From: Syntrophales bacterium
Lineage (GTDB): Bacteria > Desulfobacterota > Syntrophia > Syntrophales > PHBD01
Reading direction: 5' to 3'
DNA length: 64,000 nucleotides
NCBI GenBank assembly: GCA_963668175.1
Contig: OY764159.1
Coordinates: 1,344,001 to 1,408,000 of the forward strand
This document shows positions 26,897 through 51,347 of this stretch, in pieces (positions within the stretch are counted from its first letter, which is position 1; every line of letters starts with the position of its first letter). The translations under genes and the position numbers were made by a program. Below the pieces are notes generated by a model. That model was not told the DNA's origin. It saw only the letters and a list, made by a program, of their open reading frames with translations, and made no database searches.

Positions 26897-26912
26897 AATA
26901 TCGCTTCCTCCA

Positions 26913-28218: not shown

Positions 28219-28233
28219 GATACACCTCTTCCT

Positions 28234-29053: not shown

Positions 29054-29266
29054 TTAGACCCCGCCCGGCTGCCGCAAAGCATCCCGATCGTTCCGCAAGT
29101 ATATTCGGACCGATCCCGGCCTGCGCAACCGGTTCTCAAATGTTGTCGCGGGCGGCGGCCGCAATGTGGCCGCCGCTCAGAAAGTCTTTACCATATCGGG
29201 AACGAATTTCCCAAAACTATCATCGTCCGGTAAATCCGGACCCGGCCCGCCATGAGCCATGATGAC

Positions 29267-29295
29267 AAAAAGGGGAGATATTAACCTCCCCTTTT
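29267..29295. terminator. Intrinsic terminator after hydC
   Basis: AAAAAGGGGAG-ATATTAAC-CTCCCCTTTT. Confidence 0.75.
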
Positions 29296-29326
29296 CGCTT
29301 TATAAACTTCTACATGTGCCTGATCT

Positions 29327-29992
29327 CTATTTATGCTCTTTCCTGAACACAAGTCCCGAAATCATCGACGACACGGTACCTTCCTTGAAGATGACATCAT
29401 ACCAGAAGGCCATGTAGACATGGACGACGATGAACAGGACAAAACACCACGTCAGGATATGATGGACCAAACGCACGATGGCGAGTCCGCCCATCATGGT
29501 CTCTACAGGCTTCAGGATCTTGTAGAAAATACCCGTGAGCCCTCCGTGATAGCCCGCCGCCCCGGTCAGGATGAGGCCGGTGACGACGATGAGGAAGACC
29601 ATCGCCAGAAGGCCGCCGTAGGCCAGGGATTGCAGCGGTCCATACAGGTGCGTATGTTCCGGCGGTTCCTTGGAAATCAGCAGGTAAAACTTGATCTGCT
29701 TGATGAAGTTCTTGATGTTGGTGAAGGCGAAAAAATCCTTCCAGTCGGCGTGAAACCTCGAGAAGAACATGAGGTATACCCGCCAGATAAAGACATAAAC
29801 CAGAAACAGGCCGAAGAGGATATGCAGGAAAAGCATAACCGTCATTTCCCGGACGTCCGCTTCGTTGCTCAGGGGAATGCCTTCCGCAATATAGAAGCCC
29901 GTGGCGATCAGGACGAAGATGAGAACCGCCATGATCCAGTGGTTGTATCTGATGGCCACCGACCACTCTTTCTTGGGTGTAATCTGCTCCAT
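29327..29992 (-). CDS. hydC: [NiFe] hydrogenase b-type cytochrome subunit
   Basis: RYNHW..ATGFYI, LHILFG, YGPLQ, RLVHH..HVYM; four TM helices. Confidence 0.92.
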   Translation of the reverse strand: MEQITPKKEWSVAIRYNHWIMAVLIFVLIATGFYIAEGIPLSNEADVREMTVMLFLHILFGLFLVYVFIWRVYLMFFSRFHADWKDFFAFTNIKNFIKQIKFYLLISKEPPEHTHLYGPLQSLAYGGLLAMVFLIVVTGLILTGAAGYHGGLTGIFYKILKPVETMMGGLAIVRLVHHILTWCFVLFIVVHVYMAFWYDVIFKEGTVSSMISGLVFRKEHK

Positions 29993-30009
29993 AACTGCCT
30001 CCTTGTCGG

Positions 30010-31683: not shown

Positions 31684-31704
31684 GCTCATTCCTCCCCGGA
31701 ACTG

Positions 31705-32916
31705 TTATTCCTTTTGTGTGGTCTCTTCTTTTTCGCCATTGCCGTCTTTATGGCGGATGGCCGTCAGTCCGGCATGAGCGGCGACACCTACGGCCGTGAC
31801 ACCCAGCAGGGCGGCCCCGATCGTGTCTAACGTGCGCCCGCCGCCACCAAACGTATCCTCGTGGATCGGCTTCTCCAGCGGAGCCATCGTATCCCAGAAT
31901 GCGGGCTCCGTGCAGCCGATGCAGCCGTGACCGGCCATGACCGGCCAGGAAATGGCGTCGTTGAAGCGTACCTTGCTGCAATTGGCGAAGGTGTAAGGAC
32001 CTTTGCAACCCATCTTGTACAGGCACCAACCGCGTTTGGCGCCGTCATCACCCCACTGTTCAACAAATTCAGCACCGTCGTAATGAGGACGTCTTTCACA
32101 GAAGTCGTGAATCCTCTTTCCGTAAGCCCAGACCGGCCTTCCCAGGTTGTCCAGGGCGGGCAGACCGCCGAACATGAGGAAATGCAGGACGGTCCCCACA
32201 AAGTTGATCGGGTTGGGCGGGCAGCCGGCGATATTGACCGTCTGGACGCCTCCTAGGGCCTCGCTGATGCCGACGGCATCGGTCGGATTCGGTTTGGCCG
32301 ACGGTACGTTCCCGAATGCGGCGCAACTGCCCATGGAGATCGTGGCCATCGCTTTGGAGACGACTTCCTTGGCGATCTGGATGCCCGTTTTTCCTTTCGA
32401 GCCCAGCCTCAAGTATTGCCCGTTCAGACCGCGCGGCAATGCACCTTCGATGACGCACACAAATTTGCCTGGAAAATCGTGCAGACACTTCTCCAGGCAC
32501 AGCTCCGCCTGGTCGCCGGCAGCGGCCATCAGTGTCTCGTGATATTCGAGGGATATCGTGTCCAGGAGTATCGTGTCCACGTTCGGATAGGACGACCGAA
32601 GCAACGCCTCGCTGCAACCGGTGCATTCGGCGAACTGCAGCCAGACCACCGGGAGGCGGCTGAATTGCTCGGCGGCCTTGGCCACCATCGGTTTGAATAT
32701 CGGCGGCAGCATGAGCGCCCCCGTCATGACCGACGTCCACTTCATGAAACTTCTTCTGCTGATTCCGCGCTCTTTCAGGAGTCCATCAAAATTCTCCACC
32801 GGCGGCGGCAGTTCCCGGTCCATCTTTTCCATGTGGACCTTGCACTTGTCCATCAACTGCCGATACTGCGAGGAAATCATCTTGTTGTACTCAGAGCTCT
32901 TTACAAAACCACCCAT
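31705..32916 (-). CDS. hydA: [NiFe] hydrogenase small subunit, Tat-exported, C-terminal membrane anchor
   Basis: SRRSFMK, ECTGCSE, GCPP, IHDFCERR, WCLYKMGCKGP, GHGCIGC. Confidence 0.95.
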   Translation of the reverse strand: MGGFVKSSEYNKMISSQYRQLMDKCKVHMEKMDRELPPPVENFDGLLKERGISRRSFMKWTSVMTGALMLPPIFKPMVAKAAEQFSRLPVVWLQFAECTGCSEALLRSSYPNVDTILLDTISLEYHETLMAAAGDQAELCLEKCLHDFPGKFVCVIEGALPRGLNGQYLRLGSKGKTGIQIAKEVVSKAMATISMGSCAAFGNVPSAKPNPTDAVGISEALGGVQTVNIAGCPPNPINFVGTVLHFLMFGGLPALDNLGRPVWAYGKRIHDFCERRPHYDGAEFVEQWGDDGAKRGWCLYKMGCKGPYTFANCSKVRFNDAISWPVMAGHGCIGCTEPAFWDTMAPLEKPIHEDTFGGGGRTLDTIGAALLGVTAVGVAAHAGLTAIRHKDGNGEKEETTQKE

Positions 32917-33022
32917 AAGACCCCCTTTCAAAGTACGTAAAATCTTTCAATCAGGACCTTCTCCGCCTGATTGTAGTCTGTTTTGGGAAAAAAAAGGAAG
33001 CTTTCGATCCACCACTAAAACG

Positions 33023-34323: not shown

Positions 34324-34493
34324 CGCAACGCTGAGGCGGCCTGTCGCTGCCGGTACTTACCTCCAATCCATCGATCCAGACAGTTGTTTTCCCCCCCGGC
34401 GATCCCGGTAAGCTTTTTTATGGCAAAGGCGGTCCGGTACGGGTGGAATAATGATTCATTATCATGAATAAAGATTGAAAGGAGCGCATGAAC

Positions 34494-37400
34494 ATGGATG
34501 TAACCAGAAGAGGTTTCTTGAAGCTCTCCGGGTCGGTTCTTGCGGCAAGCGGCGTCGGCGTCAGCCTGAAGCCCGTTTCCGCATACGCCGCCCCGCTGAA
34601 GGTCCAGTATGCTAAAGAAACCACAACGATTTGCCCCTATTGTTCGGTTGGATGCAGCATCATTGTTTCCGTGCGGAACGGTAAGGTGGTCAATACGGAA
34701 GGCGATCCTGACAGCCCGATCAACCAAGGATCGTTATGCACCAAAGGCGGCTCCATCTACCAGATGTCCGTCAACGAAAACCGGCTGGGCAAGCCCCTCT
34801 ACCGCGCCCCGTATGCCACCGAATGGAAAGAGGTGGACTGGGAGTTCGCCCTGGACAAGATTGCCAGGAATATCAAGACCAGCCGGGACAAGAGTTTCAA
34901 GTTCAAAAACGATAAGGGCGAAACCGTCAACCGCACGGAAGGCATCGCGTCCGTGGGAAGCGCCGCGATGGACCTGGAAGAATGCTTCGTCTACCAGAAA
35001 TTCTTAAGGGGGTTGGGTCTGGTCTATATCGAACACCAGGCCCGTATCTGACACAGCCCGACTGTACCGGCTCTGGCAGAGTCGTTCGGACGCGGCGCGA
35101 TGACGAATCACTGGAACGATTTCGCAAACAGTGATGTGATATTAATCATGGGCAGCAACCCTGCCTCCAACCATCCCGTTTCCTTCAAATGGATCACCAA
35201 GGCCGTGGAGAAGGGCGCCAAGATCATCTGCGTTGACCCCCGGTTTACGCAGTCTGCTGCCAAATCGCACGTTTACGCCCCTCTCCGCTCCGGGACGGAT
35301 ATCGCCTTCCTGGGCGGCATGATCAAGTATATCATCGACAATAAGCTCTACCAGGAAGAATACGTTAAACACTATACCAATGCATCTTTCCTGGTCAATC
35401 CGGCCTTCAAGCTTCCCGGAGACAACGACGGTGTCTTCTCGGGGCTCACGGGCGGGAAGTACGACAAGGCGACATGGTCGTACCAGACGGACGGCAAGGG
35501 CGTCATTAAGAAGGACCCGACGCTTACCGATCCGCACTGCGTTTTTCAGCTCCTGAAGAAACACTATTCCCGCTATACCCCGGAGATGGTCCACAAAATC
35601 ACCGGGACGCCGGCGGACAAACTGGTCGAAATTTACAAGCTCTACGGTTCGACGGGCAAGCCGGACAAGGCCGGCGTCGAGCTCTACGCCATGGGCTGGA
35701 CGCAGCATACCGTCGGGACGCAAATCATCCGGACGATGTGCATGACCCAGCTTCTCTTGGGCAACATGGGCGTTGCCGGCGGCGGCGTCGCGGCCATGCG
35801 GGGCGAGTCCAACGTCCAGGGATCGACCGACCACGGCCTACTGTTCCATATCTGGCCCGGTTACCTTGCGGCGCCGACGGCTTCGATGGGCACCCTGAAA
35901 GAGTACAACGAGAAGAAGACGCCGACGACGAAAGAGCCCAACAGCCTGAACTGGTGGAAGAACTATCCCAAATATTCGGCCAGTTATATGCGCGCCGTCT
36001 ACGGGAAGAATGCCACCCTCGAAGAGGCCTATGCCTATATGCCCAAGCTCGACGACGGGGCCAACTACTCGTGGCTTGTGCTCTTCGACCAGATGTACAA
36101 GGAAAAGTTCACCGGGTTCTTCGCCTGGGGCATGAACCCCGCGTGCAGCGGCGCCCATTCCAACAAGGTCCGGCAGGCCCTGGGCAAGCTGGACTGGATG
36201 GTCAACGTCAACCTCTTCGACAACGAGACCGGCTCCTTCTGGAGAGGTCCGGGCATGGACCCCACGAAGATCAAAACCGAAGTCTTCATGCTGCCCTGTG
36301 CCTCGTCCATCGAGAAGGAAGGCAGCCTCGCCAACAGCAGCCGCCTCATGCAATGGCGCTACAAGGCGGTCGAGCCGCCCGGAATCGCCCTTCCCGATGC
36401 GGATATCATGAGCGATCTCTATTTGCGGCTCAAGGAGCTCTACGAGAAGGAAGGCGGCCCCCTGAAAGAGGCCCTCACAAAGATGACCTGGCCCTACGGC
36501 AAAAAGGTCGGCGCCCACTACCATTTCGATCCCCATGCGGCGGCCAAGGAGATCAACGGGTTCTTCCTGGAGGACAAGAAAGTCGAGAATCCCACCAAGA
36601 AGGGCGATTTCAAGGAATTCAAGAAAGGCGATCCCGTTCCCACGTTCGCCTGGCTGCAGGATGACGGGTCAACCTCTTCCGGCTGCTGGGTCTATTGCGG
36701 TTCTTATGGAGCCACCAACATGGCCGCCCGGCGCGGAACGAAAGACGCCTCCGGCATCGGCCTCTATTCCGACTGGGCCTGGTCCTGGCCGGTGAACCGC
36801 CGCATCATCTATAACGGCGCCTCCGTCGATCCCAAGGGCAATCCTTGGGACCCCAAGCGGGCCGTCATCAAGTGGAACGGCGAGAAGTGGGTCGGCGACG
36901 TACCCGACGGAGCGGGAGATCCCGGTTCCGGCCGGCCGCCTTTCATCATGAAGCCGGACGGTGTGGGCAGCCTCTACGGCCCCGGCCTGGTGGACGGGCC
37001 TTTCCCCGAGCATTACGAGCCCCTGGAATGTCCGGTGGAGAAGAATTTCCTGTCTCCCCAGAAGCATAATCCGGTCATCAAGCGTTTCGACAAGCCGGGC
37101 GTGGGCTCCGACCTCGACGTTTACTCCAACGTGGCAAGCTGCGATCCCCGCTTCCCCATCGTCTGCTCGACCTACCGGATCAGCGAGCACTGGCAGACGG
37201 GTGTCCTGACCCGCTGGTGTCCGTGGCTGGCAGAAATGCAGCCGGAAATGTGGTGCGAGATGAGCCTGGAGCTGGCGACGGAGAAGGGCATCAAGAACGG
37301 CGAGAAGGTGGTCGTCAAATCGGCAAGAGGCGAAGTCGAAGCCGTGGCGATCGTCACGTCCCGCTTCAAGCCTTTCAACATCAGCGGCAACACGATCCAT

Positions 37401-37595
37401 GAAGTCGGCATCCCCTGGCATTTCGGCTGGATTACAACCATGGACAGGAAATACTCCCCGGGCGACAAGAAGGCCAAGGTGTTCACCAAGGGCGACGCGG
37501 CGAATCTCCTCGTCCCGACCATCGGCGACGCCAACACCATGATCCCGGAAAGCAAGGCTTTCATGGTCAATGTGATGAAGAAGGGGGTGAATTAA
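34494..37595 (+). CDS. fdnG: Formate dehydrogenase-N alpha subunit, selenocysteine-containing (intact)
   Basis: Tat TRRGFLK, CPYCSVGC; in-frame TGA 35049-35051 in EHQARI-U-HSPTVPALAESFGRGAMTNH joins ORFs 34488-35051 and 35100-37595; RGESNVQG. Confidence 0.93.
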
Positions 37596-37597
37596 TC

Positions 37598-38401
37598 ATG
37601 GCTGATATCGTGAAACTCATCGATGTATCGAAATGCACCGGATGCCGCGGCTGCCAGTTGGCCTGCAAGCAGTGGAACCAGATGCCGGCGCGGCAGACGA
37701 CGAATTATGGGACATACCAGAATCCGCCGGACCTGCAATGGAACACCTGGACGCTGATACGGTTCCAGGAGATTCCCGACAAGGACCGGGTCAAGTGGGT
37801 CTTCCGGAAGGACGGCTGCATGCACTGCACCGACGCCGCCTGCGTCAAGGTCTGTCCCAGCGGTGCCCTTTTTTATTCGGAACTGGGGACGGTCGGTCTC
37901 AACAAGGAACGCTGCATCGGCTGTAAGGAATGCGTCTCCGCCTGTCCCTTCGAGATCCCCAGGTACGACAATTTGACGGACAAGATCTACAAGTGCGATC
38001 TCTGCCTGTCGCGTCTCCAGAGCGATCTGACCCCGGCCTGCGTCAAGGCGTGCCCGACGGGTACCCTGACCTTCGGCGACAAGGAGAAGCTTCTGAAAAA
38101 GGCCTATGCCCGCGTAGAGGAACTGAAGAAGGAGGGCTTTGCCGACGCGAACGTATACGGGGACAAGTTCGTCAAGGGGACGCACGTGATGTACGTCCTG
38201 GACGAGAAGCCGTCCGTGTACGACAAGCTGCCGACGAGCCCGTCGGTGCCGCTGGCGGTCGTTCTCTGGAAGGACTTCCTGAAGCCGCTCAGCTTAATTG
38301 CGGCGGGCGGCGTGATAGCGGGCTCGTTCCTGCATTACATCATCCACGGGCCGAAACTGCCCGACGAAGAGCCCCGAGACAACGGCAAAGGAGGTGAATA
38401 G
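37598..38401 (+). CDS. fdnH: Formate dehydrogenase beta (Fe-S) subunit
   Basis: CTGCRGCQLACKQWN and three further Fe-S motifs; C-terminal TM. Confidence 0.93.
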   Translation: MADIVKLIDVSKCTGCRGCQLACKQWNQMPARQTTNYGTYQNPPDLQWNTWTLIRFQEIPDKDRVKWVFRKDGCMHCTDAACVKVCPSGALFYSELGTVGLNKERCIGCKECVSACPFEIPRYDNLTDKIYKCDLCLSRLQSDLTPACVKACPTGTLTFGDKEKLLKKAYARVEELKKEGFADANVYGDKFVKGTHVMYVLDEKPSVYDKLPTSPSVPLAVVLWKDFLKPLSLIAAGGVIAGSFLHYIIHGPKLPDEEPRDNGKGGE

Positions 38402-39074
38402 CCATGAGAAAAGGACTTATTCAGGTAACGGACGCCTTTGAAAGGATCGTCCACTGGTCTTTGGCCGCTTCCTGCCTGATCCTGTGCATTACGGGACTGG
38501 GGATGATGTTCCATTCGCTGAACTTCATCGGCGACATCATGGGCGGGTTGAAATCGTTGAAGTACGTTCACAACTTTACGGGGGTCTTTTTCGCCTTTGC
38601 CCTGGCGTTCACGATCGGGATGTGGTGGAAGGAGGCGGGCATTTTTTCGATGCCCGAGGACCTGGACTGGATCATGTGCGGGGGCGGGTACGTCTGGCAT
38701 GTGGACAAGGTTCCGGAAGTGGGGAAGTACAATCCGGGTCAGAAGATGTTCTTCCTGGTGGTGGCGGGCTTCGGCGTGGTCATGGTGCTGACGGGTCTCG
38801 TGATGTGGTTTCCCTTGAGCTTTCCGTCATGGCTGGTGCGCTGGCTGTTTGTCCTGCACGCACTGGGCTTCGTGGCGATCTTTGCCTTTTTCTTCGTCCA
38901 TCTGTACCTGGGGACGGTGGGATCGCCGGGATCGTTGCCGGCGATGCTGACGGGCTGGGTGACGCGTGCGTGGCTTGCCAAGCAGCACCCCAAGTGGTTG
39001 AAGGAGATGGAGCACGAAGGGAAGCTCGTCGTCTACGGCGAAGAGAAGAAATCGGCCCACGGCCACTAGGCGGA
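38144..39074 (+). repeat. 931-bp near-identical inverted repeat, copy 2
   Basis: Matches the reverse complement of 17886-18816. Confidence 0.9.
38404..39069 (+). CDS. fdnI: Formate dehydrogenase gamma subunit (cytochrome b)
   Basis: Protein differs from the 17891-18556 copy at one residue (VAIFAF vs VAVFAF). Confidence 0.92.
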   Translation: MRKGLIQVTDAFERIVHWSLAASCLILCITGLGMMFHSLNFIGDIMGGLKSLKYVHNFTGVFFAFALAFTIGMWWKEAGIFSMPEDLDWIMCGGGYVWHVDKVPEVGKYNPGQKMFFLVVAGFGVVMVLTGLVMWFPLSFPSWLVRWLFVLHALGFVAIFAFFFVHLYLGTVGSPGSLPAMLTGWVTRAWLAKQHPKWLKEMEHEGKLVVYGEEKKSAHGH

Positions 39075-39199: not shown

Positions 39200-39784
39200 A
39201 TGATGAAGGCGAAACGGCGGTTGACGGCGGCCGCGGTCTGCTTTTCGGCATTATGTCTCTTTTGGTTCCCGGCGCAGGCGGCAGCACCGCCGGCTGTCGG
39301 CGGCGTCATGCCGGACATTGTGCTGGAGGTGCCCAAGGATTCAGGCGATCGCAGCTATCTGGGGCTCTCCTGGTGGGGCAAGACCTTCACGATACCGGCC
39401 GTCAAGGCCCGGGTCGTCATCATCGAAATATTCAGCATGTATTGCCCCTACTGCCAGGCGGAGGCTCCCAAGGTCAATGCGCTTTATGAGATGATCGAGG
39501 CCGATCCGGCCCTCAAGGGAAAGCTGAAGTTGATCGGGATCGGTGTGGGGAATTCGTCTTACGAGGTCGGCGTCTTCAAAAAAAGATATCAGATTCCGTT
39601 TCCGCTTTTTCCCGATGGGGGATTTGTCATCCATAAACAGGTGGGCGAGGTGCGGACGCCTTACTTCATAGGAATCAGGATAGAGGGCGACGGGTCCCAT
39701 AGGGTTTTCTTTTCCAGACTGGGGGCTTTCGACACGGCGGACGGATTTCTTAAAGACATGGTCAAACTTTCCGGTCTGAAGTAA
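39200..39784 (+). CDS. Exported TlpA/ResA-like thioredoxin-fold protein
   Basis: Signal peptide (AQA), [14 protein letters not shown] cis-Pro loop. Confidence 0.8.
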
Positions 39785-39795
39785 GGAGGGCATGC

Positions 39796-40392
39796 ATGAA
39801 ATCGATTTATACCATCCTGTTTGCGGTCACCGCCGCCGCGGTCTTTGCGGCATCTCCCGCATCCGCCCGTTCCGACGCCTTCAAGGACAACATCTACAAT
39901 CCCGGCCGTCTCAAGCCGACCGACAGCGTGCTTAAGGTGAAAGCTGGGGACCCGGCTCCCGATTTTACACTTCCGGCCGTTGCCGGAGGGACGGTTACGC
40001 TCAGCCGCTTCAGGGGCAGTAAGAATGTGGTCCTGTCCTTCGTTCCCGCCGCCTGGACACCCGTCTGTTCCGACCAGTGGCCCGGGTATAATATCGTCAA
40101 GGACCTCTTCGACGCCCACGACGCGGTGCTTCTGGGAATTACGGTGGACAACATACCGACGCTCTTTTCCTGGACGAACCAGATGGGGCGGCTGTGGTTC
40201 CCCGTCCTTTCCGATTTCTATCCCCACGGCAAAGCGGCGGCTGCTTACGGCATCCTGCGGTCCGACGGCACGTCGGAGAGGGCGCTCTTCGTGATCGACA
40301 AGAAGGGCATCATCCGCTACATCGATGTCCACGACATCAACGAAAGGCCGTCCCTGGAAGCCCTGGCAAAAGAACTGGAAAAGCTGAAATAG
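39796..40392 (+). CDS. Exported peroxiredoxin/redoxin (AhpC-TSA, AhpE-like)
   Basis: Signal peptide, [30 protein letters not shown]. Confidence 0.85.
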
Positions 40393-42132: not shown

Positions 42133-42972
42133 CTAAGCCTGCAGATAGCTGTGAAGGCCCGGGAGGTAGTTTACCCCCAGGTACGTAAAGAGGACGGACG
42201 CGAAGCCGATGACGGCCATGAGCGCCAGGCGTTTGCCGCGCCAGTCGCGGACGTACCGGGCGTGAAGCATGGCGGCGTATATGATCCAGGTAATGAGGGA
42301 CCAGGTCTCTTTCGGGTCCCAGCTCCAGTACGATCCCCAGGCGTAATGAGCCCAGATGGAACCCGTCATGATCCCGATCGTAAGAAATACAAAGCCAAGG
42401 GCGACGCTGCGATAGATCGTCTCGTCCAGGCTCTCCGAAGAGGGGAGGCGTTCGCCGATTCCCTCGTGACGGGCCGTGATCCAATCCCTGAGAAAATAGA
42501 TCAGGCCGCATCCGAAAGCGACGGTGAAGGAGGCATAGCCCAGAAAACAGGTAACGACGTGGCTCGTCAGCCAGTTGCTTTGCAAGGCCGGGATCAGGGG
42601 TTGAATCTGGCTGCTGACGCCGGGAGCGATCGAGGCGTAGGCCATGGCGAGAAAAGCCGCGGGCATCACGAAGGCGCCGATGGCGCGGGAGCCGGTTCGC
42701 CATTCGATGAAGAGGTTGATGGCGACAATCGCCCAGGCGAAGAAGACCATCGATTCGTACAGGTTCGACAGGGGGATATGCCCGATGCCGAGATCGTAGG
42801 AAGCCTTCCAGCGGAGGAGCAGGGCGCATGTTTCGGCGGCGATGCCTATCCATGCGGCGATGGAGCCGACGCGGCCCCATAATTCCTTTCCGAAAATCAT
42901 GCGGACAAGATAGGCGACAAAGGAAAAGAAGTAGATAAATGTCACCCAGCTTAAAATCGTCGTATGCGTCAT
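42133..42972 (-). CDS. resC: System II cytochrome c synthase WWD subunit (ResC/CcsA)
   Basis: HIPLSNLYES, PALQSNWLTSH, WAHYAWGSYWSWDPKETW, GLHSY. Confidence 0.95.
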   Translation of the reverse strand: MTHTTILSWVTFIYFFSFVAYLVRMIFGKELWGRVGSIAAWIGIAAETCALLLRWKASYDLGIGHIPLSNLYESMVFFAWAIVAINLFIEWRTGSRAIGAFVMPAAFLAMAYASIAPGVSSQIQPLIPALQSNWLTSHVVTCFLGYASFTVAFGCGLIYFLRDWITARHEGIGERLPSSESLDETIYRSVALGFVFLTIGIMTGSIWAHYAWGSYWSWDPKETWSLITWIIYAAMLHARYVRDWRGKRLALMAVIGFASVLFTYLGVNYLPGLHSYLQA

Positions 42973-44354
42973 GAAGCCAGTTCCTTTACAATTTGGGTAC
43001 GGATGCCGTCCATCAGCCGCTTCATGGATGCGGCGTTCCGGTTGCTGCGGCCGGCCACGGATATCCGCGTCTTTCCCTTAACGGTGTCGACGCGGACCCA
43101 GAAGCGATGGTGGAAGACGAAGTAGATGACGACAAGCCCCGCAATCATCAGGAACCCGCCGCCGGCGACGAGCGGCACGCCGGGGTCACGGGCTACCTGG
43201 AGGCCTGTATAGTATTGTTGTTCGACGCGGAGGAGGGCGAAGACATACGGCCTGAACAGGCCGGGGTTGAAGAGGGGGACTTCGTCCATGAGTCCCGGGT
43301 TCGATTCCTTGATCTCGTCGATATGCTGGAATATCCAGAACTGAACATCCGTTGCCGCCGACCGGACGCGGATTTTCGCCGCCGGTCCCATATTCATCAA
43401 GTTGTCTTCGACGCGGAGCACCTCGACCTTGGCGTCGCTTCCCGGGATGTCGAATACATCCCCGACGCTGATCATGAATCCTTTTTCCTTCAACGCTTTG
43501 CCGGTGACCGTGATGAAGGCGCGGCCGTCCGAAACGGAGCCGTAGCTTGCCTGGTAGAAACGGACGCCGCCAAACTCGAGGGGATGATTGACAAGCACCG
43601 GCCCCTGAAAGACCACCTTGCCGTCCTTAATGAAGCTGAGATCGGAGCGGTAGGTCTTCGGGGCGCCGTTTTCGTAGAAATCCACCATGAAGCGGTCGCA
43701 CCGGACGGAAAAGCCGAGGTCCCGTGTCCCCTTGCCGCCCCTGATCGAGGCAGCGTCGGCGGTTCCGCCCTCGACGATGTTCATGTAGGCGTTCAAGCCC
43801 CATAGGGAGCCGACGAGGGTCCCGGCGATCATAATGAGGATGCTCAAATGGACGGCGTAGACGCCAAAGAGGGAGAACCGCCCTTTGTCTCCGAAGAAGA
43901 CCGTCGTGCCTTCCTGGGAATCGTTCCTTTCGAGTCGGCGGAATTTGCCCCGCAGGAGCGCCTCGACGCGCTTCGCGACGTCTTCGCGCCCGGCGTCGGA
44001 GATCATGACCTGTTCGGGAGGCAGATTCTCGTAAAGCCCGGCCGGACCGGGAAAGGGGCTGGACGTGAATTGACGCAATGATGCGGGAAAACGCCTCCAT
44101 GAGCAGACGATAAGATTGACGGACAAGAGTCCCAGAAGGACGTAGAATACCAGGGAGTGGTAGATGTCGAAAAGCTGGAGATTGTGCAGGATGCCCACCG
44201 TGGTCGGCGACAGCTGCCGGGCGAATTCCGGCGCGTTTTCCTGCTGCGGGATGAAGGTCCCGACAATGGCCAGCAGGGCGATCAGGATCAGGAGGGTCAG
44301 GGTCAGTTTGAGGGAAGACAGGACCTTGAGAAGAGGGTTGTCGTTTTTCGGCAA
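42969..44354 (-). CDS. resB: System II cytochrome c biogenesis protein ResB
   Basis: GTFIPQ, DIYHS, YAVHLS, VNHPL..YQAS, GLQVARDPG. Confidence 0.92.
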   Translation of the reverse strand: MPKNDNPLLKVLSSLKLTLTLLILIALLAIVGTFIPQQENAPEFARQLSPTTVGILHNLQLFDIYHSLVFYVLLGLLSVNLIVCSWRRFPASLRQFTSSPFPGPAGLYENLPPEQVMISDAGREDVAKRVEALLRGKFRRLERNDSQEGTTVFFGDKGRFSLFGVYAVHLSILIMIAGTLVGSLWGLNAYMNIVEGGTADAASIRGGKGTRDLGFSVRCDRFMVDFYENGAPKTYRSDLSFIKDGKVVFQGPVLVNHPLEFGGVRFYQASYGSVSDGRAFITVTGKALKEKGFMISVGDVFDIPGSDAKVEVLRVEDNLMNMGPAAKIRVRSAATDVQFWIFQHIDEIKESNPGLMDEVPLFNPGLFRPYVFALLRVEQQYYTGLQVARDPGVPLVAGGGFLMIAGLVVIYFVFHHRFWVRVDTVKGKTRISVAGRSNRNAASMKRLMDGIRTQIVKELAS

Positions 44355-44535: not shown

Positions 44536-44566
44536 CTTGACAAGAACGGTCAAGTGGCGCTATTTT
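44536..44566 (+). promoter_or_regulatory. Candidate promoter/operator for the nrfD-like operon
   Basis: TTGACA (44537-44542)-N18-TATTTT, overlapped by palindrome CTTGAC-N7-GTCAAG (44536-44554). Confidence 0.45.
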
Positions 44567-44612
44567 ATTTGCGGGGGCAACGTATTTGTATGATGTGTGG
44601 AGATGTTTATTT

Positions 44613-45869
44613 ATGGCCTCTTTGGGTAAAGCTTGGCAAGCCGTCGATGTGGCGGCCGCATTAAGGCGCGTCCTATCCGGCGGACCCGTCTATCTCTTTT
44701 TTCTTTTCCTGTTTGTCGCCCTTCTGCTGACCGGTGCCGGGGCCGGAGTTCATGCCCTGTTCGTCGCCGGCAGTCGCCACGCCTACGGGACATACCGGCA
44801 GGTTCCCGTGGCGATGCTGATATCCAGTTACGCCTTCTTTGCCATCGCCTCGACAGGGATCTGCATCATATCGTCCATCGGGCACGTCTTCGGGGTCAGG
44901 GACCTCATGCCGCTGGCCAAGCGATGCGTGCTCCTTTCGATCTTCACCATCCTGTCGGGGTTTTTCGTGATCGGCCTGGAGTTGGAGAATCCGATCCGGA
45001 TGGCCATCTACAACGTCATCTCACCGAATTTATCATCGAACATCTGGTGGATGGGCACCCTGTACGGCTTTGAAGTTGTCTTCCTCACGGTGGAGTTTAT
45101 CTTCCTCATGAGCGGCGATCACCGGACGGCGTCGAAAGTCGGCCTGGTGGGAGTTATCTGCGGAGTCGCCGCCATCAGCAACCTGGGCGGCGTTTTTGCC
45201 ATGATGCACGGCCGCGAGTTTTGGTACGGCCCGTTTCTGCCCGTCTTTTTCATCGCCTCCGCCATGATGACCGGCTGCGCCTTCATCATGTTCTTCACGA
45301 TCATCGCCTCTTTCGTCGGACGAAAGAAGATTGAAGGGGCGACGGCCCGGTCCCTGGAAGTCGTTTCGAACCTCGCGATGCTGATGATTGCCGTGGCCCT
45401 GTTTTTCACGATCTGGCGGATGGTGTCGCTCAGCGTCGCGGGCGAACGGCAGCTCCTGGAGCTCGAAGCCATGGTCTCCGGGGCCTTTGCCTTCAATTTC
45501 TGGGGCCTGGAAATCGTCTGCGGCATCGTCATCCCTTTCATCCTTCTTTGGCTCGGAAAGGGCAGAAGCATGTGGCTCATGTTCACGGCGTCGGCCCTCG
45601 TCATATTTTCGGTCTTCTTCGTTCGTCTGGATCTCGTCGTCATCGGGCAGATCGTGCCGTACTATATGGATCTCGGTGTCGTCGAGTATTCCCGCCTCAA
45701 CGCCTATATGCCGACCTTGCACGAAGGCCTGGTGGTGCTGGGCGGGATAGGCTTCTGCATGTCGGCCTTCCTCTTTGCCGAGAGGCTCTTCGACGGCTAC
45801 CCCGACGACGGCCATGACGACGCCGTATCGCACGAGGCTGCCGGGGACCGGGCGGAGGTGGCATCATGA
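44613..45869 (+). CDS. NrfD/PsrC-family integral membrane quinol-interacting subunit
   Basis: About ten TM segments, ELENPIR, SPNLSSNIWWMGTLY, REFWYGP, YMPT. Confidence 0.85.
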   Translation: MASLGKAWQAVDVAAALRRVLSGGPVYLFFLFLFVALLLTGAGAGVHALFVAGSRHAYGTYRQVPVAMLISSYAFFAIASTGICIISSIGHVFGVRDLMPLAKRCVLLSIFTILSGFFVIGLELENPIRMAIYNVISPNLSSNIWWMGTLYGFEVVFLTVEFIFLMSGDHRTASKVGLVGVICGVAAISNLGGVFAMMHGREFWYGPFLPVFFIASAMMTGCAFIMFFTIIASFVGRKKIEGATARSLEVVSNLAMLMIAVALFFTIWRMVSLSVAGERQLLELEAMVSGAFAFNFWGLEIVCGIVIPFILLWLGKGRSMWLMFTASALVIFSVFFVRLDLVVIGQIVPYYMDLGVVEYSRLNAYMPTLHEGLVVLGGIGFCMSAFLFAERLFDGYPDDGHDDAVSHEAAGDRAEVAS

Positions 45870-46618
45870 CAACGAACGAAACCGAAAGCAAGAAGACTGC
45901 GCGGGAAGGGAAAGGCGATATCCAGGACAGGGAACGACGCGAGTTCCTGAAGATCGGCCTGGTGATCACGGGCGTTTTTGCCGGCGGCACGGTCCTCTCC
46001 CTCGCTTCCATAGCCGGAAAGGGATCGTCAGCTGCTTTAAGCAAGGAGCCGTATCCGTATAAGCCTCACTACGGCATGGTGATAAGGCAGGACCGCTGCA
46101 TCGACTGCGAGCGCTGCATGGAGGCCTGCGTTGCCACCAATCACGTGCCGTCCTACGGCTGGCGGACCAATATCCTGGCCCGGGAAGTGCCCGCTGCCGT
46201 CGGGCAGAACCGGGAGTTCATCCCCATCCTCTGCAACCAGTGCAACAACCCGCCCTGCGTCCGGACCTGCCCGACCACGGCGACTTATAAAGATAAGAAA
46301 ACCGGGATTGTCGTCATGGACATCAAGAAATGCATCGGCTGCAAGTCCTGCATGATGGCCTGTCCTTACGATATGCGCTACTACAACGAAGAGAGGCAGG
46401 CCATCGACAAGTGCGATTTCTGTTTCGAATCGAGACTCAAGAAGGGTGAGAAGACCACGGCCTGCGCCGAGGCCTGTCCGGCCGACGTGCGGGTGTTCGG
46501 CGATATCTCCGATCCGGGGAACCGCGCCTATCAACTGATTCATCAGGTTCAGAAAGCCGTCTGGGTTTTGCGGCCGGAGGTCGGCGCCCTGCCGAACATC
46601 TTCTACACGAAGGGTTAA
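45866..46618 (+). CDS. NrfC/PsrB-like 4x[4Fe-4S] protein with Tat motif
   Basis: RREFLK, CIDCERC, CNQCNNPPC, CIGCKSC, KCDFC..CAEACP. Confidence 0.9.
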   Translation: MTTNETESKKTAREGKGDIQDRERREFLKIGLVITGVFAGGTVLSLASIAGKGSSAALSKEPYPYKPHYGMVIRQDRCIDCERCMEACVATNHVPSYGWRTNILAREVPAAVGQNREFIPILCNQCNNPPCVRTCPTTATYKDKKTGIVVMDIKKCIGCKSCMMACPYDMRYYNEERQAIDKCDFCFESRLKKGEKTTACAEACPADVRVFGDISDPGNRAYQLIHQVQKAVWVLRPEVGALPNIFYTKG

Positions 46619-46628
46619 CGGAATTACG

Positions 46629-48950
46629 ATGAAAAAGCGTTTCGCCTTGATCACGATGATACTGGCCGTTCCGATGCTTGTGGCCGCCGGCGCCGCCACG
46701 GGAAGCTTTTCCGACGGGGGCGGCATCCTCTACACGGAGCCGGTGAAGGCGGTCCTCTTCAGCCATAAAGCCCACGTGGACGCGAAGGGGATTTCCTGCG
46801 ATCGCTGCCATTCTGGTCTCTTCGACATGGAAGCCCTGAAGGTCCAGCAGAAGAAGGATTTCGTCATGGAATCCCTCTACAAGGGCAAGTACTGCGGGGC
46901 CTGTCACAACGGCAAGGCGGCATTCGCCTCCGACACCCAGTGCGCTCGGTGCCATGTCCGTGCCGAGGGGATCAAGGCCGGATTCGTCAAGGGCAAAGAG
47001 AAAGCGGCTACGGTCTATAATACTTCGGTAACGATGGGCAAAGGGGAGAGCGCCGTCCGTTTCCGTCATGAAACGCACACCGCCAAGGCCGCATGCGCCG
47101 ACTGCCACCCCCGCCTCTTCAAAGCGAAAAAAGGCGCCGACCGCATTGCCATGGCCGATCACGGCAAAAACAAGTACTGCTTCTCGTGCCATGACGGCCG
47201 CAAGGCCTCTACGTGGAACGAATGCAGCACCTGCCATGCCAAGGTGCCGGTCCCTTCCCAGGCCGTTCTCTTCGGGAAGGGCGAGAAGGCGGTGCCCTTC
47301 AACCACAAGAGCCACACGGCGTCCCTGAAGTGCGCAAGCTGTCATACGAAACTATTCCCCTACAAGAAAACCGGGAAGAAGATCGCCTTCGCCGACCATG
47401 CCGCGAACAAGGACTGCTTCGCATGCCACGCCAGCTCGGGAAAAGGTTCGGCCTCTTACGACTGCAACCGCTGCCATGCGAAGACAAAGACATCCGCGGC
47501 TGCCGCGCCTGCTGCGGGGCCTGCCGGGCCCGCCCAGCCCCTTCTTTTCGGCCAGGGGGCGAAGGCTGTAGCCTTCAACCACAAGAGCCATTCGGGGGGC
47601 TCGATGCAGTGCGCAAGCTGCCATACGAAGCTCTTCCCCTACAAGCGGAGCGGCGAAAAGATCGCCTTCGCGGATCATGCCACGAACAAGAACTGCTTCG
47701 CGTGCCATGCCAGCTCGGGAAAAGGCTCGGCAACCTATACCTGCAATCTCTGCCATAAGAGTCAGGCCTCCGCCGCCCCGGCCGGGAACAAGGCCGGGAG
47801 CAAGAACGGCTGCCTCAACTGCCATGCCAATGACGCTGCCATGAAGGCGATGGTCAAACCGCCGGCGATCCCCACCGAAGGAGAGGGCTGAGCGGGGGCG
47901 CCTCCGCCAGTTAAGGCGGAGGAGTATTATAAAGGCTACCTTGTCGATCAGGGGCTGGTCGGAACGGACGTGCACCTCAGGATGGGGTGCAAGGCCTGCC
48001 ACGGCGGCGACGAAAACGGCGGATCGAAGGCCGCCGCCCACAAAGGCCTGATCGTCCGGCCCTCCGACGACCTCAAAGCCTGCGGGAACTGCCACAAGGC
48101 CATTGCCGACACATACGCCAAATCCCTCCATTACACGACCATCGGCCAGCGCGAGGGCGTCAAGGCCCGTTTCTCCAAGGCGGAACTGGCCATGTTCGAC
48201 CGGAAAGTATTCAACCAGTCCTGCCGCAGCTGCCACGCCTCCTGCGGCGACTGCCACGTTAAATCGCCTCCCGTCTCGGGTATTTCCCTGGGACTCATCG
48301 CCGGGCACAAGTTCGTCAAAAAGAACGAGGGGAAGACCTGCGCCTTCTGCCACGGAGGACGCGTCTATCCCGAATTCACCGGCGAATACGGCGGGTCCCC
48401 CGACGTCCACTACCAGAAGGGCATGATGTGCATGGACTGCCATAAGAAGTCGGAGGTCCACGGCGACGGCGCGATGGCGATGAACAAGCAGTCCGTCAAG
48501 GACCGGCCCCGGTGTGTAGCCTGCCATAAGCTCGACGGCAAGCAAATGGCCCATAACGTCCACCAGGACAAGGTGACCTGCCAGGGGTGCCACGTCGGCG
48601 GCGAGTACCGCCAATGCGAGAACTGTCACGTGGGTCCCGGCTCCATGTCGAAGCCGGGTTTCATCCTGGGACGGAATCCCCGGGACAACAAGACGTTGAC
48701 CACGCTCCGGTTGATCCCCACGGTCAGGGACACGTTCAAGCCGGCAGGCATCGCCATGAGCAGCTTCGATGCTGTGCCCAACTACTGGGATTCCCCCGTC
48801 CACAGCATCAAGAAGCGTACGGCACGGACCAGGTCTTGCGACAGCTGCCATGCGCAGCGGGAAGGGTTCCTGAAGGAGGAAACACTCATCAAGGACGGCT
48901 CCAAGGCCAACCGGAACCTGATCTATAACCTGAAACCCCTGGGTAAATAA
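46629..48950 (+). CDS. Predicted 773-aa multiheme c-type cytochrome selenoprotein (23 CXXCH, UGA at codon 421)
   Basis: Signal peptide; 13 CXXCH before and 10 after the in-frame TGA 47889-47891; 26 sense codons link to ORF 47970-48950; SECIS-like hairpin. If read-through is wrong, these are two cytochrome genes. Confidence 0.8.
47889..47922 (+). promoter_or_regulatory. UGA plus candidate SECIS hairpin
   Basis: TGA-GCGGGGGCG-CCTCCGCC-AGTTAA-GGCGGAGG: perfect 8-bp stem; loop begins 17 nt after the UGA with GU at loop positions 2-3. Confidence 0.75.
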
Positions 48951-49014
48951 TTGCCGGCCGGGAATTCAAACGGCGCGGCAGAACCTGCAAGAAACCAATC
49001 CAATGCCAGACCCG

Positions 49015-49045
49015 GCCCGGCAGGGCTATCCTGCCGGGCTTTATT
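49015..49045 (+). terminator. Intrinsic terminator after the cytochrome operon
   Basis: GCCCGGCAGG-GCTAT-CCTGCCGGGC-TTTATT. Confidence 0.7.
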
Positions 49046-49267
49046 GCTTGCCGTAGAGAGGGGCTATTGAGCCCTTCCTTGAAAATAGCCGGGAGATGGG
49101 TTACACTGCGCCGTCATCTTCGAAAGGCCTGTCTCTTTCATTCGGGCCTTTCCGGGGAAGGCGGCGGAGTTGTCCCGAGGGCCTGAAGAAGGCCGGCGTT
49201 CCGTCCGGAAGGCTGGCTCAACGCGGGCCCGCCGTGCGGAACACATTACAACGGCGGAGGATCGAAG

Positions 49268-50212
49268 ATGAAGAAGATATTGTGGTTTGGCCTGGGTCTG
49301 GTCGTTATTCTCGTTGGCGCCCTGTACTTCCTGTATTCCTCTTCTTTTGTGTACGAGCAGGCGATCAACGCCGAGAGGGCCGCTGCCGGCCTCGTCAGGA
49401 AGAACATCCAGGTGGACGACCACCGTATTGCCTACCTGGAAGGCGGGGCGGGGGAGGTCGTCGTCCTGATCCACGGTTTCGGCGCCGAAAAAGACAATTG
49501 GGACCGCTTTGCCAAGTACCTCCAGCCCGGCTGCCAGGTCTTCATCCCCGATCTGCCGGGATTCGGCGAGAGCAGCAAACTGCCGGAAGCCCGCTATGAC
49601 ATAGCGAGCCAGGTCAAGCGTCTCAACCGGATAGCCGAGGCGCTCAATCTCCGGAAGTTTCACCTGGCGGGCAATTCCATGGGGGGGATGATCGCCTGCG
49701 AATACGCGGCCCAGTATCCCGAGAAGGTCCTGTCCCTCGGTCTCTTCGCCCCCGGGGGAATCTTTCCGCCCCACAAGAACGAGCTGATGAAGCTCCTCGA
49801 AAAGGGAGAGAACCCCCTCGTAGTGAAGACCCCGGAAGACTTCGACCGGATCATGTCGCTGCTTTTTGTTTCGCCTCCGCCTTTTCCGGCGCCCGTCAAA
49901 AAGTTCCTCGCGGATCGCGCCATGGCCAACGCGGCTTTCAACGAAAAAGTCTTCAAGGACATGAGCGCCGATTTCCGCACGCCGGACTCGCCGCTCGCGC
50001 CGTTTCTCCCCAAAGTCGCCGCCCCGACCCTGATCGTCTGGGGCGACAAGGACAAGATCCTCGATGTTTCGAGCGTCTCCGTCCTGGAGAAGGGGCTTAA
50101 GAACCGCCAGACGATTATCATGAAGGACACGGGCCACGTCCCTATGGTGGAAAAACCGCAGGAATCGGCAGCCGCATACCGGTCCTTTATCGAAAAGGCG
50201 GTAAAACGCTAA
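49268..50212 (+). CDS. Alpha/beta hydrolase (lipase/esterase) with N-terminal anchor
   Basis: LIHGFG, DLPGFGES, GNSMGG nucleophile elbow, WGDKD, GHVP. Confidence 0.9.
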   Translation: MKKILWFGLGLVVILVGALYFLYSSSFVYEQAINAERAAAGLVRKNIQVDDHRIAYLEGGAGEVVVLIHGFGAEKDNWDRFAKYLQPGCQVFIPDLPGFGESSKLPEARYDIASQVKRLNRIAEALNLRKFHLAGNSMGGMIACEYAAQYPEKVLSLGLFAPGGIFPPHKNELMKLLEKGENPLVVKTPEDFDRIMSLLFVSPPPFPAPVKKFLADRAMANAAFNEKVFKDMSADFRTPDSPLAPFLPKVAAPTLIVWGDKDKILDVSSVSVLEKGLKNRQTIIMKDTGHVPMVEKPQESAAAYRSFIEKAVKR

Positions 50213-50216
50213 GATC

Positions 50217-51347
50217 ATGGTTTCAAGCCGCTTCCATCCCGCACGTCTTTTCCGGCGGCGGTGGTTAAAGATTGCCCTTCCCGTCGCCGCCGTCCTCGCG
50301 GCCGTCACCGTCTGCGCCGTATTCAGGGCCGAGGGCTATATCAAGGAAAAGCTGGAGGCCAGCCTGGGCAAGGGCGTATCCATCGGTTCCGCCTCCCTGG
50401 GATTCCGGTCCATCGCATTCCGGGACGTCCGCATGAAGGACGCCGCCGGGCGGGATGCCCTCCATATCCGCGAGGTTTCCTGCGGTTTTCGGGTTTTCGA
50501 CCTCCTGACGGGGCGACGGGCGATACGCCTGATCGCGTTCCGGGAGCCGGATATCCACCTCGCGATCGACGCACATGGGAAGCTGACCGGCCCGGCCCTG
50601 GGCGTGCCGCCTGCCCGCGGGGGCAAGGAAGAAGATCAGAAGCCCTGGGTCGTGGGGCGGGTCGCGGTCAGCGGCGGGAGCCTCGATTTTTCCGATCACA
50701 GGGACCCGCACCGGCCGGTGCGCATCGAGGTCCGGGATATCCGGTTGAGCCTCGACAATCTCGCCCTGCCCGCGGACGGCCGGTTTTCGGCATACGAACT
50801 TTCGGCAACGATTCCCGGCCGTACGGGAAAAGGCACGCTTCAGAGCCGCGGCCGGATTCAATTCGGCCCCTACAACGCCGACGGTTCCCTGAAGCTCGTC
50901 AACCTCGACATCACGCCCTTTGAACCTTATTTTCAGAAGGATTACAGTATCTCTCTCCACAGGGGCTTTCTGGACCTGGACCTCTCGGCACGCATCGCCG
51001 GCGGGCACATCAAGGGCGATGGCAGGGCCGTCCTGAAAGACCTGAGCGTAAGCGACAAGGCCGGCAGCGGAGGGCAATTCGCAGGAATCCCCGTTTCGCT
51101 GATGGTGGCCTTTCTGGAACGGAATAACCATCAAATCCCCCTGCGCTTCGCCGTGGAAGGCGATCTTAAGAATCCCGCCTTCAGCCTCCGGGAGAACCTT
51201 GTCCAGGGGATCGTCTCCGGGACGGCCGAAGCCGTCGGGCATGTCCTGCATCTGCCGGGCCGGGCCGTCTCCGGCGGGAGCGTTTCGACCCTCAAATCGA
51301 CGCTCGGCCGCCTGGGGGAACGCCTCAAAAAGGGCATAAGCCCATGA
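50217..51347 (+). CDS. DUF748/AsmA-like membrane-anchored beta-rich protein
   Basis: N-terminal TM, GSLDFSD, LDITPFEPY, VEGDLKNPAFS. Confidence 0.65.
   Translation: MVSSRFHPARLFRRRWLKIALPVAAVLAAVTVCAVFRAEGYIKEKLEASLGKGVSIGSASLGFRSIAFRDVRMKDAAGRDALHIREVSCGFRVFDLLTGRRAIRLIAFREPDIHLAIDAHGKLTGPALGVPPARGGKEEDQKPWVVGRVAVSGGSLDFSDHRDPHRPVRIEVRDIRLSLDNLALPADGRFSAYELSATIPGRTGKGTLQSRGRIQFGPYNADGSLKLVNLDITPFEPYFQKDYSISLHRGFLDLDLSARIAGGHIKGDGRAVLKDLSVSDKAGSGGQFAGIPVSLMVAFLERNNHQIPLRFAVEGDLKNPAFSLRENLVQGIVSGTAEAVGHVLHLPGRAVSGGSVSTLKSTLGRLGERLKKGISP

Follow-up and report, generated by a model that had tools for sequence, protein, structure and literature searches.

The subject of this paper is a gene for a multiheme c-type cytochrome in a window of 64,000 nucleotides (nt) from a Syntrophales bacterium (assembly GCA_963668175.1, contig OY764159.1, positions 1,344,001 to 1,408,000 of the forward strand). 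We hold with considerable confidence that positions 46629-48950 of this window form a single gene, that the UGA within its frame is decoded as selenocysteine (Sec), and that its product is an exported cytochrome with 23 hemes, the function of which we infer in part.

The 5′ part of the gene is an ATG open reading frame (ORF) at 46629-47891, the product of which has the C-terminal sequence GGAGAGGGC before the TGA at 47889-47891. As a sequence-only reading of this DNA had described, the same frame then stays open; with TGA translated as U, it runs from 46629 to a TAA at 48948-48950 and specifies 773 residues, with Sec at residue 421. Counted by eye on this translation, 13 CXXCH motifs lie upstream of the TGA and 10 downstream, and a script finds 11 in residues 380-773. 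The second ORF starts at GTG 47970, and in its translation no hydrophobic N-terminal stretch follows that codon; this downstream half, as had also been said of it, carries ten heme motifs and no signal peptide. Maturation of c-type cytochromes takes place outside the cytoplasm. Because it has no signal peptide, the C-terminal half alone could not reach the periplasm for heme attachment.

The in-frame UGA and its hairpin

A profile of the junction region was scanned against one genome per bacterial and archaeal species, and 220 stretches were found to encode a relative; counts out of 80 given below refer to the best 80 of these 220, labelled L001-L080, whose proteins are 58-69% identical to that of the window gene. 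Most of the 80 loci are of Syntrophales type (Syntrophus, Smithella, Syntrophaceae, Syntrophorhabdaceae) or are labelled just 'Deltaproteobacteria'; three bear the labels of other groups (Bacteriovoracaceae, L022; Spirochaetaceae, L036; Pseudomonadota, L046), and L049 comes from a named strain with a complete genome, Syntrophus buswellii DM-2. In the alignment, 78 of the 80 loci have TGA opposite the TGA of the window and none has TAA or TAG; the remaining two have GCA (L057) and CGA (L079). Relatives conserve the protein across the stop, with the pattern GEG-*-AGAPPPV[KR]AEE[YM]YKGY. Conservation at such divergence argues that the TGA is neither a nonsense mutation nor a gene boundary, and the pseudogene, two-gene and terminator readings are ruled out by the conservation of the TGA together with the protein that flanks it. 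Comparative genomics supports Sec read-through well, and this UGA is very probably translated in that way.

The view that the TGA is a true stop, dividing two cytochrome genes or breaking one by a nonsense mutation, with the hairpin serving as an intercistronic element or terminator, corresponds to the annotation made by public gene callers, and 111 of the 120 best clusters found with the S. buswellii query lack the part before the TGA. Public entries are mostly fragments of 305-357 amino acids (aa) that start after the UGA, often at an ATG twelve codons downstream, and are named 'hypothetical protein' or 'cytochrome c3 family protein'. An A/U-rich stretch does follow the hairpin. We nevertheless regard a true stop as almost certainly wrong: among species-level genomes at about 60% identity, 78 of 80 retain the TGA, and the protein is conserved on either side of it; the downstream half, lacking a signal peptide, would have no route to the periplasm for heme attachment; the hairpin is not called as a terminator, and a terminator-like site lies at 49014; and the upstream piece in most relatives would be a mature peptide of about 30 residues.

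Nine nucleotides (47892-47900, GCGGGGGCG) separate the TGA from the hairpin, which consists of CCTCCGCC at 47901-47908, the loop AGTTAA at 47909-47914 and GGCGGAGG at 47915-47922. The conserved core of the stem, six base pairs (bp) long, pairs 47903-47908 with 47915-47920, so that the hairpin begins 9 nt, the core 11 nt and the loop 17 nt downstream of the UGA. The perfect 8-bp stem, its 9-nt distance from the TGA, the loop at 17 nt and the GU at loop positions 2-3 are all present as the sequence-only reading had reported them, and they conform to the consensus model of the bacterial Sec insertion sequence (SECIS) set out in PMC13188914 (this and the other papers cited by PMC number are represented by excerpts, to which our statements about them refer). 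That model calls for a 3-9-nt loop whose first two positions include G, with G or U coming next, a UGA-to-loop distance of 16-37 nt and a minimum free energy of -7.5 kcal/mol or lower (PMC13188914). The present hairpin, with its 6-nt AGUUAA loop, 17-nt spacing and -20.3 kcal/mol, agrees with the model of PMC13188914 on all four counts. It is the minimum-free-energy structure of a 52-nt segment (-20.3 kcal/mol, z = -2.16; 9 of 200 shuffles are as stable), and for a segment of 71 nt z is -1.8. By itself, the stability of the hairpin is no more than mildly unusual; it is the comparative data that make the case against chance. Most relatives retain the inner 6 bp of the stem alone, starting 11 nt after the UGA, and 11 nt is the reported spacing of the minimal Escherichia coli fdhF element.

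Around the UGA, a stretch of 60 nt aligns without gaps in 81 sequences, in all of which loop positions 2-3 (alignment G31, T32) are G and U. Standard pairs fill 82.4% of the cells of the 8-pair helix, a share that drops to 32-53% on displacement of the 3′ partners by 1-3 columns. Double-sided compensatory changes are found in five cells at two pairs, examples being CCTCCTCC/GGAGGA in L025 and TCCGGC/GCCGGA in L047, L055, L056 and L059, and the covariation score was reached by 0 of 500 shuffles. Since the stem sits within coding sequence, codon choice is a stronger signal than covariation. Among the 79 TGA-bearing genes, which also provide the background, Pro at +4 is encoded by CCT in 71 of 77 cases (background 12%), Pro at +5 by CCG in 69 of 79 (40%), Lys at +8 by AAG in 33 of 33 (54%) and Ala at +9 by GCG in 53 of 54 (30%); the third bases of these four codons are all paired in the stem. 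The codons that adjoin the UGA are biased as well: of 79 genes, 67 have GGG just before it (background 21%) and 73 have GCG or GCA just after it, though the commonest Ala codon is GCC. This bias suggests selection on the immediate context of the UGA, beyond the hairpin.

An exhaustive profile search with the C-terminal region returned 507 relatives at E ≤ 0.001, and 51 database proteins were aligned with 19 read-through loci as references and two sense-codon loci. The N-terminal heme is retained in 32 of these 51 distant homologues, and 11 of the 32 have a Cys 27-32 residues before heme motif 2, the Sec of the window protein lying 32 residues before it. The context of the Cys in the 11 proteins is acidic-Gly-Cys-Gly-Gly, and in eight of them it falls in the exact alignment column of Sec. 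The sequence-only reading had pointed to the TGA column of homologues as the place where it would stand or fall, and what is found there (TGA in 78 of 80 loci, no TAA or TAG, a conserved hairpin, and Cys in 11 of 32 distant homologues) sustains it.

Many of the distant homologues (P0048, P0057, P0064 and similar) have Leu or Val as their first residue, directly behind the Sec column, in the motif [LVM]-[AP]-P-L-E-x-[WY]-E-K-V. Such N-termini look like gene calls placed just behind an in-frame stop, and we therefore consider a wider distribution: the Sec form may extend beyond Syntrophales, for example to Chloroflexota clusters.

The host itself very probably decodes Sec, because two fdnG genes in the window break at a TGA within their family match. 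As had been noted from the sequence, both contain a UGA. Each is split at TGA CAC AG; in full, the TGA is followed by CAC AGY CC in each. The halves lie at 34488-35051 and 35100-37595 on the forward strand and at 21863-22450 and 19383-21932 on the reverse strand. Against the formate dehydrogenase-N alpha model, each match breaks off at position 194 and is taken up again in the next ORF, at 212 (forward) or 285 (reverse), and we take the gap after position 194 to hold the Sec of FdnG. Both fdnG genes, each part of a complete formate dehydrogenase-N operon, are likely to encode Sec enzymes and are a source of native SECIS examples from the same organism.

Translation of the UGA by some means other than Sec, be it through a changed code or through a near-cognate tRNA (Trp, Arg or Cys) that the hairpin assists, would accommodate the rare relatives in which this codon is TGG (Trp) or CGA (Arg), as well as the lack of Sec machinery genes in the window. 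We judge it very improbable. The breaks in the two fdnG genes fall inside the model match, as fits Sec decoding; the hairpin agrees with the SECIS model on every count and has an invariant loop GU; Cys, the usual counterpart of Sec, occurs in distant homologues; and ordinary TGA stops end some related genes, such as those of L006 and L023.

Several results weigh against the interpretation of this gene as a Sec cytochrome or against the sulfur chemistry proposed for it below. The 64-kb window contains no selA, selB, selC, selD or tRNA genes. Rfam gave no SECIS family either for the whole window at the gathering threshold or for 47860-47980 at E ≤ 10, a result that says little because no family was found anywhere in the window, the two fdnG UGA sites included. 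The other 21 of the 32 distant homologues have no Cys at the place of Sec, and some have His (P0021) or Tyr (P0047, P0204) in that column. Nine of the 120 best clusters found with the S. buswellii query are full-length, with a sense codon for W (two), R (two), S, A (three) or Y; Cys stands at the Sec column in none of these nine close variants. Together with the 21 homologues, they indicate that the fold can dispense with the residue at the Sec position. In the AlphaFold2 model, confidence is low at the Sec loop, with predicted local distance difference test (pLDDT) values of 62 and 55 for model residues 31-50, and tblastn finds no rhodanese gene, the usual neighbor in relatives, in the window. 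Judged from these alignments, Sec is strongly kept within the Syntrophales family, and the position is not essential across the superfamily.

Protein architecture and fusion origin

The predicted product is a periplasmic c-type cytochrome of 773 residues, exported by means of an N-terminal signal peptide. In order, its parts are the signal peptide, a 12-heme c7 wire, heme 13, a Gly/Glu-rich Sec loop (GEG-U-AG) and a decaheme domain. Conservation across the UGA and matches in Pfam, NCBIfam and the PDB bear out the original proposal of one 773-aa protein made of four c7 triheme domains, one further heme, the Sec loop and a decaheme domain. The N-terminal part belongs to the c7 family: TIGR04257 (nanowire_3heme) matches it in four stretches with E 2.5e-63 and 210.2 bits against a cut-off of 40, PF14522 of Pfam also matches in four stretches, and PDB entry 3ov0 matches the first 379 residues with E 3.5e-50. 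These 379 residues, with their four triheme c7 domains, resemble the c7-type dodecaheme 'nanowire' represented by 3ov0 and TIGR04257; the protein in 3ov0 is presumably GSU1996. Unlike that dodecaheme, the wire here is fused to a further module with 11 hemes and Sec.

All NCBIfam matches other than TIGR04257 are far under their cut-offs; that to the GSU2203 decaheme model has E 8.8e-4 and 18.6 bits against 325. On the whole protein, Pfam recognizes electron-transfer cytochrome families alone, the MtrC/MtrF domain included, and the ESM Atlas returned generic cytochrome clusters with no functional lead. For residues 380-773, a PDB sequence search gave only chance-level matches, the best with E 7.5e-4 over 22 residues. 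The AlphaFold2 model of the same residues has a mean pLDDT of 86.0 and a predicted template modeling (TM) score, pTM, of 0.83. Its fold was searched against the PDB; none of the 45 matches at E ≤ 10 reached E ≤ 0.001, and the best of them, not significant, are hydroxylamine oxidoreductase (1fgj, E 0.081, TM 0.22) and a Shewanella octaheme protein (1sp3, E 0.086, TM 0.36). Nine His residues outside the heme motifs are invariant in the family. With 11 hemes to be served, at least two would need another distal ligand or have an open site. The alignment of the family contains no conserved Cys outside the heme motifs.

Gene architecture could be read in the 78 loci for which both gene ends are covered. 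In 71 of them, about 51-215 residues (median about 60), comprising a signal-peptide-like hydrophobic N-terminus and one heme motif, precede Sec, and 353-360 residues with 10 heme motifs follow it (9 in L022). The common form of the family is, in other words, an 11-heme protein of about 415 aa. The other seven loci (L007-L010, L014, L015, L017) have 250-252 residues and seven hemes before Sec, in genes ordered NrfD-NrfC-(7-heme + Sec + 10-heme); NrfD- and NrfC-like genes lie directly upstream in six of the seven, and in L008, for which the upstream sequence is shorter, the NrfC-like gene alone is seen. The window gene has 420 residues and 13 hemes before Sec. A stand-alone 12-heme homologue of 361-363 aa, with its own signal peptide, occurs in L045 and L060, where its gene comes after NrfD and NrfC genes, lies a few kilobases from the Sec gene and ends just past heme 12.

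Because both parts occur separately in relatives, we regard the 23-heme gene as a fusion of a dodecaheme gene with the 11-heme Sec module, in which the linker KSQASAAPAGNKAGSKNG replaces the signal peptide of the latter. This goes beyond the sequence-only reading: on the evidence of gene structure, a predicted selenoprotein with 11 hemes is much the commoner form, and the 23-heme protein is its fused variant. The window gene is the largest known fused form of the family.

A fused gene of this kind raises the possibility that the main role of its UGA is that of a switch governed by selenium, with a 13-heme wire and a 23-heme enzyme as its two functional products. Sec insertion in bacteria is incomplete, a matter of established knowledge, and termination at the UGA would yield the equivalent of the stand-alone 12-heme homologues (361-363 aa; L045, L060) plus one heme. 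Since that product is still a plausible 13-heme wire, the supply of selenium could, we speculate, set the ratio of the two. We nonetheless think it unlikely that switching is the main role, for the UGA did not evolve for it: termination in the common 11-heme form leads to a useless peptide. Switching is compatible with Sec insertion as we propose it rather than opposed to it.

Rhodanese pairing and proposed function

In 56 of the 80 loci, a tandem rhodanese gene follows on the same strand, starting from -44 to +141 nt relative to the stop codon of the cytochrome gene (for six loci, the sequence available downstream is shorter than 500 nt). The rhodanese N-terminus is hydrophobic in the manner of a signal peptide in 49 clean ORFs with lengths of 295-325 aa, and the Cys-Asp and Gly of the active-site loop are invariant in 43 aligned sequences. 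One database protein, P0003, is a natural fusion of the decaheme domain with a rhodanese. The common 11-heme protein, as predicted from these genomes, is usually paired with a rhodanese gene, a point absent from the sequence-only reading. In L003, L005, L027, L030 and L048, the tblastn match to the rhodanese starts 20-44 nt before the cytochrome stop codon in the same frame; either the genes abut or the alignment crosses the stop codon.

The pairing recalls a known Sec enzyme. MccSep (ExtKL, GSU2937 + GSU2936) of Geobacter sulfurreducens is a Sec-containing pentaheme polysulfide reductase in which Sec, beside a His/Cys heme, attacks polysulfide (PMC13510729); its family was first predicted in PMC1914089. 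Like MccSep, the protein described here would be a periplasmic multiheme c-type cytochrome from the Desulfobacterota, annotated as two ORFs, with one in-frame UGA, a SECIS-like hairpin, Sec in a Gly-containing loop outside the heme motifs and a link with a rhodanese-type protein. In the ext cluster, the corresponding protein is ExtH, which we take to be a rhodanese. The two families are distinct in other respects. MccSep has five hemes, and the present family has 11 or 23; the Sec of MccSep stands in D-G-U-P in a C-terminal Ig-like domain, whereas here it stands in GEG-U-AG near the N-terminus of the module; and MccSep has a His/Cys heme, in contrast to a family in which no non-motif Cys is conserved (PMC13510729). 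Unlike MccSep, the window protein is encoded with NrfCD-like genes. Membership in MccSep/ExtKL is ruled out by the 11 motifs, by GEG-U-AG and by NF040886, which gives no match at E ≤ 0.01 or at E ≤ 10, and the suspicion voiced at the outset that MccSep is smaller and of different architecture proves correct (PMC13510729).

Three heme-related selenoprotein families are named in a 2026 review: ExtKL (NF040886), the GSU2204 family (NF041027) and TIGR04315, the octaheme tetrathionate reductase family, of which Sec variants are listed (PMC13188914). Neither the window protein nor that of S. buswellii is matched by any of the three models, even with the limit set at E ≤ 10. The GSU2204-family CXXCH selenoprotein is excluded in this way, and octaheme tetrathionate reductase by the lack of a match to its hidden Markov model and by the fold comparison with 1sp3 (E 0.086, TM 0.36). 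The likeness to hydroxylamine oxidoreductase and octaheme tetrathionate reductase (1fgj, 1sp3) consists of top, non-significant fold matches to a family that includes enzymes of sulfur compounds. Earlier surveys bear on the novelty of the family. In the excerpts, no cytochrome figures in a selenoproteome of Syntrophus aciditrophicus from 2006 (PMC1794560), a 2007 survey of stop codons has the Geobacter pentaheme family as its sole find of this type (PMC1914089), and a 2026 study of Smithellaceae genomes counts multiheme cytochromes from predicted proteomes with selenium unmentioned (PMC13685792). Full-text literature, which excludes supplementary tables and subscription-only papers, yielded no description of the family as a selenoprotein. 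We regard it as a new family in the class of Sec-containing multiheme cytochromes, a class itself established only recently.

Beside the window cytochrome are an NrfD-like membrane protein (73 bits with PF03916, cut-off 25.8) and a four-cluster ferredoxin with a signal of twin-arginine translocation (Tat) type, the composition of an NrfD/NrfC membrane module. The arrangement is that of NrfCD-type modules (Nrf, Ttr, DsrOP, Qrc), in which an NrfD-family protein and a Tat four-cluster ferredoxin accompany a periplasmic multiheme cytochrome. It differs from them in that the partner cytochrome is of another family and carries Sec, and in that NCBIfam equivalogs stay under their cut-offs; the ferredoxin matches DsrO, TtrB and NrfC models, each below its cut-off, and reaches no equivalog.

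We propose the following mechanism. The hairpin, acting as a bacterial SECIS, would bring SelB and Sec-tRNA(Sec) to the ribosome so that Sec is inserted at UGA 47889, and a single exported 23-heme periplasmic protein would result. The cytochrome would be co-transcribed with the NrfD-like membrane subunit and the Tat-exported NrfC-like iron-sulfur subunit; the complex that they form would therefore connect a periplasmic redox site with the quinone pool. Judged from gene order and domain families, electrons would pass between the quinone pool and the periplasm by way of NrfD, NrfC and the 12-heme wire to the 11-heme module. The adjacency of rhodanese in relatives suggests that the chemistry, as in MccSep, to which the protein is unrelated, is that of sulfane sulfur or polysulfide. 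By this pairing and this analogy, the Sec module would be a catalyst acting on sulfur in either of these states or on a similar chalcogen compound. The selenolate might act as a nucleophile on the substrate or on a persulfide of the rhodanese, with the hemes supplying electrons. Because the window has no rhodanese, this sulfur chemistry is carried over to the window gene from its relatives.

It is possible, although we doubt it, that the Sec module is not a sulfur enzyme and is instead an electron conduit (extracellular or interspecies) or acts on another substrate, with Sec as an axial ligand of a heme. The Pfam matches, confined to electron-transfer families and including the MtrC/MtrF domain, and the window operon with no rhodanese would suit a conduit. 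The nine invariant distal His residues for 11 hemes would suit a ligand role for Sec, as would the His (P0021) and Tyr (P0047, P0204) found at its column, since both can ligate heme iron; the W, R, S and A variants cannot. What inclines us toward catalysis is the rhodanese gene that adjoins in 56 of 80 loci, the one natural fusion, and the identity of the best (non-significant) fold matches, hydroxylamine oxidoreductase and the Shewanella octaheme protein, which are catalytic multiheme enzymes.

A fuller picture can be drawn, although it is rather unlikely to hold. The family would be an unrecognized selenoprotein family in which Sec, on a flexible loop of the 11-heme module, either ligates a heme iron as selenolate or, as a swinging selenol, carries sulfane sulfur from the periplasmic rhodanese to a heme for reduction. 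It would be a second, independent invention, beside MccSep, of chalcogen chemistry by Sec plus heme. In the window, a 12-heme nanowire and NrfCD would tie the module to the quinone pool, and the UGA would double as a selenium-dependent switch between 13-heme and 23-heme products.

Neighboring genes and significance

The features of the window that concern this gene and its surroundings are collected in the table.

Table. Positions of the candidate selenoprotein gene, its parts and neighboring features in the window
Feature	Position	Strand	Basis
Candidate selenoprotein gene, whole	46629..48950	+	773 codons + TAA, 23 CXXCH; TGA=U translation and comparison
Signal peptide + four c7-type triheme domains (12 hemes)	46629..47765	+	TIGR04257, PF14522, PDB 3ov0
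Heme motif 13 (CLNCH)	47811..47825	+	Equivalent to first heme of relatives' 11-heme module
In-frame UGA, very probably read as Sec (residue 421)	47889..47891	+	TGA at aligned codon in 78/80 loci
Linker + decaheme domain (10 CXXCH), no solved close relative	47892..48947	+	507 relatives at E ≤ 0.001
SECIS-type hairpin	47901..47922	+	8-bp stem, 6-nt loop AGUUAA; folds, alignment, pair counts, codon bias
Promoter-like site TTGACA-18-TATTTT	44537..44566	+	Consensus scan, 10/12 matches; pattern match alone
NrfD-like integral membrane subunit, putative quinone-interacting	44586..45869	+	Pfam PF03916, E 4.4e-20
NrfC/DsrO/TtrB-like 4Fe-4S subunit (four-cluster ferredoxin)	45866..46618	+	Fer4_11 and related Pfam; twin-arginine-type RERREFLK
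Terminator-like hairpin ending operon	49014..49040	+	12 pairs then T-rich tail; consensus scan
ResB + CcsA (system II cytochrome c biogenesis)	42133-44354	-	Divergent, directly upstream of operon
Formate dehydrogenase-N operon (alpha, beta, gamma)	34488-39069	+	Alpha gene split at in-frame TGA
Formate dehydrogenase-N operon (alpha, beta, gamma, FdhE-like)	16858-22450	-	Alpha gene split at in-frame TGA

ResB-like genes also lie near the Sec cytochrome gene in 28 of the 80 related loci. Directly downstream of the operon, on the opposite strand, is an ORF of 414 aa (49064-50308) that has no match in Pfam or NCBIfam and one weak relative among the 80 loci (L058, 27% identity). A NiFe hydrogenase cluster occupies 22785-32931 on the reverse strand, with small and large subunits, a cytochrome b, HypD, a HypE-like protein and HypF; its large subunit scores 582 bits with the NiFeSe model, for which the cut-off is 600. 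Two adjoining ORFs of the AhpC/TSA family, the first with a weak match, lie at 39200-40392 on the forward strand. Peroxiredoxin-like proteins are known selenoproteins in this group, and for this reason a hidden UGA is possible in the pair.

Sec-containing multiheme cytochromes have only recently been shown to be real enzymes (MccSep, 2026), and the family described here would be a second, unrelated and apparently larger one, with 604 clusters at E ≤ 1e-40 and 220 genome loci. Because annotation cuts the gene in two, surveys of cytochromes that are based on predicted proteomes, such as that excerpted in PMC13685792, would miscount its hemes and miss its signal peptide. The pairing with rhodanese provides a directly testable hypothesis. 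We take both S. buswellii DM-2 and Syntrophus gentianae to be in culture. Experiments would be feasible if S. buswellii DM-2 (L049) or S. gentianae, the source of a truncated cluster (P0162), is cultured. The family sits in syntrophic Syntrophales, such as Syntrophus and Smithella, organisms in which the periplasmic electron sinks and the metabolism of sulfur and selenium are poorly understood.

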